Sequence record: OP168898.1 | Direction: 5' to 3' (one strand) | Length of the DNA: 64,000 nucleotides | Source: Escherichia phage ZCEC14 | Shown here: one piece after another, positions 330 through 2,305 of the stretch | How the letters are laid out: each line of letters begins with the position of its first letter | How positions within the stretch are numbered: position 1 is the first letter of the stretch | Translations under genes and position numbers: made by a program | Notes under the pieces: model-generated | Told to the model about the DNA's origin: nothing | Databases searched by the model: none | The model's input: the letters and a program-made list of their open reading frames with translations, nothing else

Positions 330-818
330 ATGAATATATTTGAAATGTTACGTATAGATGAAGGTCTTAGACTTAAAATCTATAAAGACACAGAAGGCTA
401 TTACACTATTGGCATCGGTCATTTGCTTACAAAAAGTCCATCACTTAATGTTGCTAAATCTGAATTAGATAAAGCTATTGGGCGTAATTGCAATGGTGTA
501 ATTACAAAAGATGAGGCTGAAAAACTCTTTAATCAAGATGTTGATGCGGCTGTTCGCGGAATTTTAAGAAATGCTAAATTAAAACCGGTTTATGATTCTC
601 TTGATGCGGTTCGTCGTTGTGCATTGATTAATATGGTCTTCCAAATGGGAGAAACCGGTGTGGCAGGATTTACTAACTCTTTACGTATGCTTCAGCAAAA
701 ACGCTGGGATGAAGCAGCAGTTAACTTAGCTAAAAGTAGATGGTATAATCAAACACCTAATCGCGCGAAACGCGTAATCTCAACATTTAAAACAGGAACT
801 TGGAAAGCGTATATATGA
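330..818 (+). CDS. e: lysozyme (endolysin, T4 gene e)
   Basis: 162 aa; [33 protein letters not shown]... matches T4 lysozyme almost residue for residue. Confidence 0.97.
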
Positions 819-1096
819 AAACATATAGTGAATTTTTATCAGAATCTATTCTTAACGAAGCTACTGACACATTTGCAACTAAGCTAGGTGCAGCTTTGGT
901 TGAAGCTGAAAGTCTATTAGCACGTATTTCTGAACTTGCTAGTAAGATAGATACTCGCAAATTTGAGCGCACCAGTGATATCGTTAAGCTTGAAGCCTTG
1001 TTGCGTATGTGCGATAAACCGGAAGAAATCGCTAAGAACGGCTCGCTGATGAAACAACGTCTTGAAAAATATATTTCAGGCGCTTCAGAAAAATAG
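815..1096 (+). CDS. internal-protein-like small protein with capsid-targeting-sequence-like N-terminus
   Basis: 93 aa from ATG 815 (ATGA overlap with e stop); N-terminus [10 protein letters not shown] resembles MKTYQEFIAE of ipIII/ipII. Confidence 0.55.
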
Positions 1097-1098
1097 TT

Positions 1099-1128
1099 GT
1101 TTACTTCCTCCAAGGGTTTTGATATTAT
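1099..1128 (+). promoter_or_regulatory. T4-type early promoter (GTTTAC, 18-bp spacer, TATTAT)
   Basis: GTTTAC 1099-1104, -10 1123-1128; followed by SD GGAGG and ATG 1156. Confidence 0.6.
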
Positions 1129-1155
1129 ACATTCATCAACTACTTGGAGGAAATT

Positions 1156-1296
1156 ATGACCCGTATCAATTTAACACTTGTTTCTGAATTGACCGACCAA
1201 CATCTTATGGCTGAGTATCGTGAATTACCACGCGTATTTGGTGCAGTCCGTGAACATGTTCAAAACGGTTTACGCTTAAGTATTAATATGGTATAA
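1156..1296 (+). pseudogene. truncated duplicate of denV 5' end (46 codons)
   Basis: [35 protein letters not shown] then divergent tail and stop; same N-terminus as full denV at 2306. Confidence 0.6.
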
Positions 1297-1325
1297 TTAC
1301 TCTATCAAAACAAACAAGGAAACAC

Positions 1326-1904
1326 ATGAAAACATATCAAGAATTTATTGCCGAAGCTTCTGTAGTAAAGGCCAAAGGTATTAATAAAGATGAGTGGACC
1401 TACCGATCGGGAAACGGCTTTGACCCTAAAACAGCTCCTATTGAACGGTACTTAGCTACAAAGGCTTCCGACTTTAAAGCTTTCGCTTGGGAAGGACTTC
1501 GCTGGCGTACCGATCTAAATATTGAAGTTGATGGGCTTAAATTTGGCCATATTCAGGATGTTGTTGCTAGTAACTTAGACGCAGCTTTTGTTAAAGCCGA
1601 CGGTGACCTTCGTCGCTGGAATTTAAAACTGTTCTCTAAACAGAAAGGCCCGGTGTTTGTGCCTAAAGCTGGTAAATGGGTTATTGATAACAAATTAGCT
1701 AAGGCTGTCAACTACGCTGGTCTTGAATTTGCCAAGCATAAATCATCATGGAAAGGTCTTGATGCAATGGCTTTCCGTAAAGAATTTGCTGATGTTATGG
1801 CTAAAGGCGGCTTTAAGGCAGAACTAGATACCTCTAAAGGTACGTTTAAAGACGCTAATGTTCAGTACGCTTACGCCGTTGCTAATGCAGCCCGTAATTC
1901 CTAA
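1326..1904 (+). CDS. ipIII: internal protein III
   Basis: 192 aa; MKTYQEFIAEASVVKAKGINKDEWTYRSGNGFDPK... matches T4 IPIII. Confidence 0.9.
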   Translation: MKTYQEFIAEASVVKAKGINKDEWTYRSGNGFDPKTAPIERYLATKASDFKAFAWEGLRWRTDLNIEVDGLKFGHIQDVVASNLDAAFVKADGDLRRWNLKLFSKQKGPVFVPKAGKWVIDNKLAKAVNYAGLEFAKHKSSWKGLDAMAFRKEFADVMAKGGFKAELDTSKGTFKDANVQYAYAVANAARNS

Positions 1905-1945
1905 TAAAGCTAATACTCAGACCTATTTACATTTAAAGGAAACAT

Positions 1946-2248
1946 ATGAAAACATATCAAGAATTTATTACTGAAGCGCGAGTGAGTGCAGGTAAATTAG
2001 AAGCCGCTATAAATAAAAAGGCCCATTCATTTCATGATTTGTCCGATAAAGACCGTAAGAAACTTGTAAGCCTTTATATTGACAAAGAGCGTATTCTCGC
2101 TCTTCCTGGCGCTAATGAAGGTAAACAGGCCAAGCCTTTGAATGCTGTCGAAAAGAAAATTGATAACTTTGCTTCTAAATTCGGTATGTCTATGGATGAC
2201 CTTCAGCAAGCGGCTATCGAAGCAGCTAAAGTAATTAAAGGTAAATAA
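1946..2248 (+). CDS. ipII: internal protein II
   Basis: 100 aa; MKTYQEFITEA N-terminus; size and position of T4 IPII. Confidence 0.8.
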   Translation: MKTYQEFITEARVSAGKLEAAINKKAHSFHDLSDKDRKKLVSLYIDKERILALPGANEGKQAKPLNAVEKKIDNFASKFGMSMDDLQQAAIEAAKVIKGK

Positions 2249-2250
2249 CA

Positions 2251-2280
2251 GTTTACTTTCTCCTAGAATTGTGATAGTAT
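2251..2280 (+). promoter_or_regulatory. T4-type early promoter upstream of denV
   Basis: GTTTAC 2251-2256, -10 TAGTAT 2275-2280, SD GGAGGGG before ATG 2306. Confidence 0.6.
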
Positions 2281-2305
2281 AATCATAATTACTTGGAGGG
2301 GTAAA

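Follow-up and report, generated by a model that had tools for sequence, protein, structure and literature searches.

In bacteriophage T4 the internal protein (IP) genes ipIII and ipII are located between the lysozyme gene e and denV, which codes for the UV repair enzyme endonuclease V (PDB 2END; Pfam PF03013). The T4 proteins Ip1-3 are injected and each of them inhibits a different GmrSD restriction enzyme (PMC12373910). According to Repoila et al. (1994; cited in PMC12373910, PMC9026906 and PMC3012670), the ip genes of T-even phages are polymorphic. Hyperplastic regions of T4-type phages also carry PeSL cassettes, which consist of a sigma-70-like early promoter with a stem-loop over the -10 box, a Shine-Dalgarno (SD) sequence and an ATG, and which flank non-essential genes (PMC2839356, PMC4122927). 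The genes to which these cassettes are adjacent vary between phages (Arbiol et al. 2010, PMC2839356; Comeau et al. 2014, PMC4122927).

A close counterpart of the locus described here is found in the Mosigvirus vB_EcoM_JS09 (NC_024124, here JS09). It has two denV loci which flank IP genes, one being intact and the other being an N-terminal stump of about 45 codons, generated by a 292 bp deletion between short direct repeats (GGCAAA). This stump (JS09_060; 2608-2745 of the extracted locus) codes for 45 aa, lacks about 100 residues, and is listed in RefSeq as 'endonuclease V N-glycosylase UV repair enzyme'. It has thus been present in GenBank without having been remarked upon.

We have analyzed 64,000 nucleotides of Escherichia phage ZCEC14 (OP168898.1), referred to as the window, which megablast assigns to Tequatrovirus. 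The first 4.5 kb correspond to the e-to-vs region of T4, beginning with the 3′ end of nudE. The window has the T4 genes e, ipIII, ipII and denV (the order e-ipIII-ipII-denV, given in an initial annotation of this sequence, is that of T4 record X04567) and, again as in T4, a promoter within a hairpin upstream of denV. In contrast to T4, it additionally has a gene for a predicted 93-aa internal head protein, here called IPx, and a 46-codon ORF, which is the pseudogene remnant of a second, divergent denV. It is very probable that this second denV was cut by a 571 bp deletion, after two denV alleles at two sites had been joined by recombination, so that one of them was lost. JS09 is the mirror image, with an intact upstream denV and a downstream stump, and it shares the IPx and ipII modules at 98.6-100% nucleotide identity. 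Its stump is the older one and has decayed (Arg3 to Tyr, Arg22 to Cys, SD weakened from GGAGG to GGATG), whereas that of ZCEC14 shows as few as 1-3 differences in 114 nt when compared to intact relatives.

A truncated denV upstream of ipIII

The 46-codon ORF had been described in the initial annotation as an endonuclease V N-terminus with its catalytic residues, and this could be substantiated. T4 endonuclease V (PDB 2END) can be aligned with residues 1-41 of the product (E 1e-18), and Thr2, which provides the alpha-amino nucleophile, Arg22, Glu23 and Arg26 are all present. The homology is indeed N-terminal and followed by divergent sequence, but it runs to codon 38 rather than ending after about 34 residues. 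The product passes the gathering score of Pfam family Pyr_excise (PF03013) with 28.8 bits (cut-off 23), the matches being restricted to positions 1-35 of 81 in the Pfam profile and to positions 1-41 of 139 in that of phrog_1183. The denV-derived part comprises codons 1-38 (1156-1269). From there the ORF continues into the ipIII promoter, which contributes its last 8 codons and its stop. With 38 denV codons left from a complete domain of about 137-138 residues, the stump is a gene fragment and not a functional member of the endonuclease V family.

The 114 nt derived from denV are 97-99% identical to the intact denV found at the upstream site in phages G2133, SP1, W143 and Pu-Krd-SF4, as compared to 73% identity to the intact denV of the window itself. 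A mechanical repeat search, which pairs 1156-1274 with 2306-2424, gave 72%. The coding similarity of the two copies is true homology, but they have diverged too much to represent a recent duplication. The presence of an intact denV at the T4 position and the substantial divergence of the two copies had both been recognized initially. The intact gene matches positions 1-138 of 139 of the phrog_1183 profile, far exceeds the Pfam cut-off of 23 (Table 1), has the four catalytic residues (T2, R22, E23, R26) and is 77% identical to T4 denV at the protein and 71% at the nucleotide level. Copies with at least 90% nucleotide identity to it occur in 279 phage records. There are thus three types of denV sequences: that of T4, the upstream type (90% aa identity to T4), and the type of the intact gene in the window (77% aa identity to both). 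T4 DenV itself is nearer to the upstream type than to the intact copy of ZCEC14.

The truncation can be read directly by comparison to G2133. Where positions in relatives are given, they refer to extracted loci (L003, G2133; L004, T4 X04567; L006, BF15 MW822007; L088, JS09 NC_024124; L021, IMGVR_UViG_2974787500_000001). Positions 1-1269 of the window correspond to L003 702-1970 with 99.6% identity, and positions 1263-2307 correspond to L003 2535-3579 with 99.0% identity, so that the two pieces overlap by 7 nt. These 7 nt, AAACGGT, occur twice in G2133 (L003 1964 and 2535) but only once in the window, from which the intervening 571 bp are missing. The lost segment comprises denV codons 39-137 and a small IP-like ORF which begins with MYQEFI. 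Its right end adjoins the -35 box GTTTAC of the ipIII promoter P_C, which has been left intact, and the stop codon of the stump is within the -10 box of P_C. Two copies of a repeat in the intact form and a single copy at the junction are the hallmark of deletions between short direct repeats, and the same is seen for five other deletions at this locus, which are described below. The event, presumably replication slippage or short-homology recombination between the AAACGGT repeats, would have fused denV codon 38 to the ipIII promoter at its -35 box.

The complete form of the upstream site is widespread. At least 80% of the region 800-1330 is covered by 235 phage records, and among the matches listed 40 of 40 are in two pieces, which span about 0.86-1.1 kb and thus leave room for a full-length denV at the upstream site. 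The junction itself (1225-1345) has no single-piece match in 50,697 phage records (blastn, INPHARED), nor was it found as an exact 40-mer in IMG/VR or as an exact 30-mer in the JGI metagenomes, and the 46-aa product has no exact match in the protein index. The possibility, raised initially, that the 46-codon ORF is a conserved gene with unrelated homologs can thus be dismissed, as both ORF and junction are absent from the other records searched. No record spans the whole stretch 300-2900 of the window, the best coverage being 87% (megablast).

Losses of denV in related phages

In G2133, SP1, W143 and Pu-Krd-SF4 gene e is followed by IPx, a denV of 137 codons, the small IP-like ORF and ipIII. 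These phages have kept the upstream denV and lack the downstream one. In each case, the loss is due to a deletion between direct repeats, and both repeats of each pair are still present in the window (Table 1). Phage BF15 (MW822007; 1598-1766, 3012-3124) has lost both copies of denV, as its upstream copy carries an additional deletion of 310 bp between TATG(A/T)CCCGT repeats. As judged from its genome, BF15 is a natural denV-null T-even phage. In phages F27 and FL44 the match to the upstream-type denV is limited to its last 108 nt, and they are probably denV-null like BF15.

Genomes with two intact copies were searched for in several ways. When the two-copy sequence was rebuilt (2672 nt) and compared to the 50,697 records, the maximal coverage was 87%, the best match being the SP1 type, which lacks 347 bp. 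A chimeric probe with both denV interiors detected 487 records with 491 places, and the one two-place record that was examined (JS09) has the stump. The 36 T4-like loci among 80 IMG/VR denV loci have one denV each. We did not find a publication which discusses two denV loci. The two-copy state has thus been inferred, not observed.

None of the about 490 genomes with either allele has kept both interiors intact, and there are at least six independent short-repeat deletions. From this, one might suppose that the state with two denV genes arises recurrently in T-even phages and is actively unstable or selected against rather than merely neutral. We consider this rather improbable; if true, the locus would be a natural replicated experiment on the intolerance of gene redundancy in a headful-packaging virus. 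The two independent stumps end at nearly the same position, codon 37 in JS09 and codon 38 in the window, which could reflect a deletion hot spot or an N-terminal peptide that is tolerated or useful.

Exchange of IP and denV modules

When compared to JS09, the window shows 98.6% nucleotide identity for IPx, 96.5% for the predicted promoter P_A plus the stump, 100% for ipII, and 95.2% for the predicted promoter P_B plus the 5′ end of denV, as opposed to 79.6% for e and 84.3% for vs.8 in the flanks. The initial view of the locus as a site of cassette exchange is well supported by this difference, which indicates that IP/denV modules move between genera. T4 homology of gene e stops at 813, and its product, which has 162 aa, ends with KAYI and thus differs from that of T4. 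The left recombination boundary of the IPx/denV module is inside the end of e (813-818). Different genera have denV at different positions with respect to the IP genes, the orders including e-ipII-denV-ipIII, e-IPx-denV-vs.8, e-denV-IP and e-ipIII-ipII-denV.

A recombinant denV is found in the metagenomic locus L021 (3939-4411), where P_A and about 60 nt of the upstream type are fused to the downstream type directly after IPx, ipIII and ipII being missing. It seems to have resulted from a crossover of the two denV alleles. The denV gene of Salmonella phage Lv5cm appears to be a mosaic, too.

Promoters also differ in their neighbors. P_B precedes denV in the window and in L025 (there directly after e), ipIII in T4, and no gene in G2133. 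The intergenic promoter between e and ipIII in T4 (X04567 634-701) is homologous to P_B with 91-96% identity. At the position where L025 (3946-4411) has an SD sequence and denV, T4 has 23 unrelated nt, so that T4 itself may carry an orphaned denV promoter upstream of ipIII.

Promoters and hairpins

Each of the two denV copies is preceded by a predicted early promoter. P_A, upstream of the stump, was detected in a promoter scan (9 of 12 consensus matches with the TG extension), and the identical sequence precedes the intact denV in G2133 and L008 and is also present in L021. P_B, upstream of the intact gene, was below the threshold of the scan and was read by eye (GTTTAC, a 17-nt spacer, TG-n-TAGTAT, 8 of 12 matches). 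The mechanical repeat search detected a promoter repeat (1091-1129 vs 2243-2281) with 77% identity.

That both copies follow a similar early promoter and SD leader, as had been stated initially, is correct as far as the presence of these elements is concerned, but the likeness exceeds background only modestly. The window has 20 early-promoter-like sites, and of the 190 pairs which these form, P_A/P_B (78% identity over 59 nt) ranks fourth (mean 62%, standard deviation 6.5%); promoters of unrelated genes in the window reach 85%. The two are thus members of a dispersed family, and resemblance by itself is no proof of duplication; as evidence for it, promoter likeness was dropped. Members of this early-promoter cassette family precede unrelated genes at 15181, 40023, 18158, 61849, 4863, 9252 and other sites, all on the + strand. 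They have GTTTAC, a TG-extended -10 box, and often CTATCAACTAC and GGAGGA, with pairs being up to 85% identical over 59 nt. These dispersed cassettes resemble the PeSL cassettes of RB49 and phi1.

The -10 box of both promoters is enclosed by a hairpin. The minimum free energy is -19.1 kcal/mol (z -3.4) for P_A and -20.2 kcal/mol (z -3.7) for P_B, where none of 200 shuffles folds as well, compared to -18.0 kcal/mol (z -2.8) for the leader of T4 denV. [quoted passage not shown] In T4, the imperfect inverted repeats C and C′ are annotated around the denV -10 box in X04567. We compared 14 distinct denV leaders from several genera, with the arms aligned by means of the CTCC and GGAG boxes. The CUCC:GGAG core is the same in all of them, and the extensions of the hairpin covary (AAG/CUU, UGUAG/CUACA, GUUUG/CAAAC, UGUG/CACA). 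Of the cells, 88% are paired, compared to 39-52% when the partners are slid, and changes on both sides are found in 32 cells, compared to 13 ± 2.7 in shuffles, none of which (0 of 500) reaches 32.

In T4, gene e and others have an internal promoter within a hairpin that sequesters the SD sequence, and only transcripts from that promoter are predicted to be translatable. The denV modules resemble gene e in that the hairpin encloses the promoter and the ribosome binding site is in the 3′ arm, but the internal promoter of gene e is a late one while those described here are early. Given this geometry and the T4 precedents, read-through transcripts from upstream would be attenuated, terminated or untranslatable, as their CUCC arm would pair with the SD sequence. 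Transcripts that start at the early promoter of the module itself do not include the 5′ arm and would be translatable, so that only these would express denV.

With a sigma-70-like early promoter that is followed by GGAGG and ATG, and with a stable stem-loop which covaries across genera, P_A (1099-1155) and P_B (2251-2305) have the makeup of PeSL cassettes. They differ in that the 3′ arm of the stem is the SD sequence itself. They may possibly also act as recombination sites that move the genes which they flank; P_A precedes the chimeric denV of L021, and P_B is found beside differing genes across phages. The deletion that made the stump is unlike an exchange of PeSL by PeSL, as its left end is inside the denV coding sequence, at a 7-bp repeat, and only its right end adjoins a promoter.

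Origin of the stump

In the scenario that we favor, the ancestral module between e and ipIII would have consisted of IPx, P_A in its hairpin, a complete denV of 137 codons, and the small IP-like gene. The two alleles at two sites would have been united by homologous recombination between co-infecting phages with different arrangements, where one crossover in the shared ipIII-ipII block would yield one two-copy and one zero-copy product. Subsequently, ZCEC14 would have lost one copy, relatives the other one by four different short-repeat deletions, and some phages both. UV repair would now be supplied by the other denV allele (2306-2722) with its own promoter-in-hairpin P_B. Such a history fits the modular shuffling of hyperplastic regions in T4-type phages (PMC2839356, PMC4122927).

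The initial annotation considered the short copy to be the scar of an ip cassette that was inserted into or beside the 5′ end of a single denV, thereby duplicating the promoter and the first ~35 codons. The layout is suggestive of this, as the ip genes are between two promoter-denV-start modules in direct orientation, 1150 bp apart, at a locus which exchanges cassettes between phages. It is true that two such modules flank ipIII and ipII, but they are divergent and do not represent a partial duplication. An insertion should leave near-identical copies rather than copies with 72-73% coding identity, and the short copy shares 97-99% of its nucleotides with a full-length gene that is found at the same site in about 235 records. 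As one can see directly both the deletion that caused the truncation and its 7-bp repeats, we regard an insertion scar as extremely improbable. The same applies to an assembly artefact, a chimeric join from a mixed lysate of two differently arranged T-even phages. Mixtures of T-even phages are common in enrichment cultures and the arrangements share long identical stretches. However, there is no switch of arrangement at the junction, which is a clean single 7-bp repeat within one arrangement with G2133-like sequence (99-99.6%) on both sides, and similar short-repeat deletions occur in independently sequenced phages. It is also very unlikely that the stump has been kept as a functional micro-protein, with residues 1-38 of DenV serving in DNA binding or in interference with host or competing DenV. 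Its promoter, hairpin, SD sequence and start codon are intact, so that the 46-residue peptide may well be made, and the JS09 stump, which arose independently, ends at nearly the same codon. Nothing suggests that the peptide is useful, though: INPHARED, IMG/VR, the JGI metagenomes and the exact-protein index hold no second example of the junction, a promoter sequence encodes the tail, about 100 of 138 residues are missing, and the stump of JS09 has decayed.

A more serious competitor is a history in which two copies never coexisted. The upstream denV could have been deleted in a phage that was already devoid of the downstream one, the intact downstream copy being regained later from a phage with the T4 arrangement. 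Genomes devoid of denV are known (BF15, probably F27 and FL44), two-copy genomes were not seen in our searches, and the identity to G2133 is 99% on the left side of denV but 96% on its right side, a difference that would agree with the import of a right-hand tract. On the other hand, five of the six deletion alleles are found in genomes where the other copy is intact, which is what one would expect if loss is made possible by redundancy; the remaining allele is the 310 bp deletion of BF15. Moreover, one crossover within ipIII-ipII is sufficient for the two arrangements to give a two-copy genome directly, and the L021 recombinant is the expected product when two copies, or two arrangements, recombine. 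We thus consider a denV-null intermediate to be possible but rather unlikely.

Several points weigh against loss from a two-copy genome as we propose it. No sequenced genome with two intact denV genes was found, so that the two-copy intermediate had to be inferred. Because double-null genomes exist, the stump could have formed when no other denV was present, with a later regain. On the right side of denV, no record is more than about 96% identical to the window, and therefore recency and order of the events cannot be read from the sequence. The stump itself is known from assembled sequence alone. Concerning expression, the promoters were predicted computationally, anchoring on CTCC and GGAG favors the proposed pairing, and an unanchored analysis of 17 denV leaders (MAFFT/RNAalifold) gave no structure, because indels misaligned the arms in the plain alignment.

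IPx and other features of the locus

The initial annotation had also stated that the 93-aa product of 815-1096 starts with a capsid-targeting sequence (CTS) of the ipIII/ipII type, and the pattern was found at all three positions (815, 1326, 1946). In its strict form, MKTY.EF[ILV].E, it occurs only four times in the six frames of the 64 kb, the fourth occurrence being at 47275. A match to phrog_3499 ('internal head protein') covers the entire IPx protein, for which there is no Pfam family. According to PMC9026906, Tyr4 and Phe7 are the criteria for targeting and Leu/Ile8-x-Glu10 those for cleavage by gp21. IPx has Tyr4, Phe7 and Leu8-x-Glu10, and cleavage is predicted to occur after Glu10, with Ser11 as mature N-terminus. 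The protein is 99-100% identical in SP1, W143, G2133, Pu-Krd-SF4, BF15 and JS09, and RefSeq designates the homologs from JS09, Pu-Krd-SF4 and UFV13 as 'internal head protein' by similarity, not by experiment. The annotation of JS09 cites Ip10 and DenV of phage Pol from Repoila et al. 1994. Like the Ip proteins of T-even phages, IPx combines a conserved 10-residue CTS with an otherwise unrelated small protein and is encoded in the ip locus between e and denV. It differs in being near-neutral or acidic (pI 6.3 for the mature form), whereas IPII and IPIII are basic. By analogy to the T4 proteins, the obvious guess is that IPx is a candidate for an injected anti-defence protein.

The stop codon of e overlaps the start codon of IPx (ATGA, 815-818), which suggests translational coupling. 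The SD sequence plus CTS forms a three-copy repeat (805, 1316, 1936), with 93% identity between 1316-1357 and 1936-1977. The fourth CTS (MKTYKEFIKE, perfect) is at the start of a 54-codon ORF (47275-47439, + strand), which immediately precedes the primase gene 61 (47442-48470) and is distant from the ip loci. The ORF belongs to phrog_1823 (unknown function), has no Pfam family, and its product is acidic (pI about 5). With this N-terminus, it could be an unrecognised packaged protein.

Between denV and the vs.8-like ORF there are 144 nt (2723-2866) without a long ORF in the vs.8 frame. In T4, the homologous stretch is annotated as an N-terminal extension of ORF 64.0 (X04567). The first 83 nt have been lost in G2133 and BF15, and a 78%-similar copy of 2778-2860 is located between ipIII and ipII in W143 and JE01. 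A structured RNA in this stretch was considered and dropped, as folding is no better than for shuffles (z +0.3). An Rfam scan of positions 1-5000 did not reveal a credible family (one miRNA match, E 0.49).

Table 1. Features of the e-denV region in the window. Repeats that flank deletions in related phages are listed with the size of the deletion and with what remains of the downstream denV.
Feature	Position	Strand	Basis and remarks
e, lysozyme gene	330-818	+	left anchor of the variable interval; ORF list; 96.6% identity to T4 up to 813
IPx, 93-aa internal-head-protein gene with CTS	815-1096	+	phrog_3499, E 1e-46
P_A, predicted early promoter of the upstream denV copy	1099-1128	+	-35 GTTTAC 1099-1104; TG-extended -10 TATTAT 1123-1128
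P_A hairpin enclosing the -10 box	1105-1152	+	5′ arm UUCCUCCAAG, 3′ arm CUUGGAGGAA; GGAGG 1146-1150
denV stump, 46 codons	1156-1296	+	PDB, Pfam and PHROG matches to the N-terminus only
Deletion junction, single AAACGGT adjoining the -35 box of the ipIII promoter	1263-1269	+	comparison with G2133
P_C, predicted early promoter of ipIII	1268-1297	+	-35 GTTTAC 1268-1273; -10 TATAAT 1292-1297; 10/12 consensus matches with TG
ipIII, 192 aa, CTS MKTYQEFIAE	1326-1904	+	phrog_5341, E 1e-117; 93.6% nt identity to T4 ipIII
ipII, 100 aa, CTS MKTYQEFITE	1946-2248	+	phrog_7857, E 5e-55
P_B, predicted early promoter of the intact denV	2251-2280	+	-35 GTTTAC 2251-2256; TG-extended -10 TAGTAT 2275-2280
P_B hairpin enclosing the -10 box	2249-2308	+	CUCC box 2260-2263 pairs with GGAG 2295-2298
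Intact denV, 138 aa, divergent allele at the T4 position	2306-2722	+	phrog_1183, E 4e-62; Pfam Pyr_excise 51.5 bits
Exact 14-nt repeat TATTTACATTTAAA	1924-1937 and 2710-2723 (right copy spans the denV end)	+	786 bp lost in Pu-Krd-SF4-type relatives; ipII gone too
GGGTAAA repeat	2299-2305 and 2806-2812	+	507 bp lost in G2133 and BF15; orphan promoter and SD remain
GACTCG repeat	2308 and 2655		347 bp lost in SP1 and W143; ATG ACT CGA TGA (MTR-stop) and the last 70 nt remain
GGCAAA repeat	2410 and 2702		292 bp lost in JS09; 45-aa stump JS09_060 remains
vs.8-like gene, 179 codons	2867-3406		

Significance

The stump allele of ZCEC14 is new, but the kind of feature is known: it represents ordinary gene turnover in an injected-protein locus that is known to be plastic. 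For annotation, it follows that 1156-1296 should be marked as a denV pseudogene and neither as a gene nor as a second 'endonuclease V', and that JS09_060 is likewise a pseudogene. The locus is a legible record of how T4-like phages turn over their genes. Promoter-gene modules have been swapped between genera at 95-100% identity, redundant copies would then have been trimmed by deletions between repeats of 6-14 bp, and in some phages denV has gone entirely. The CUCC:GGAG hairpin at the denV early promoter, with its compensatory changes, provides a testable model of why each module has a promoter of its own.

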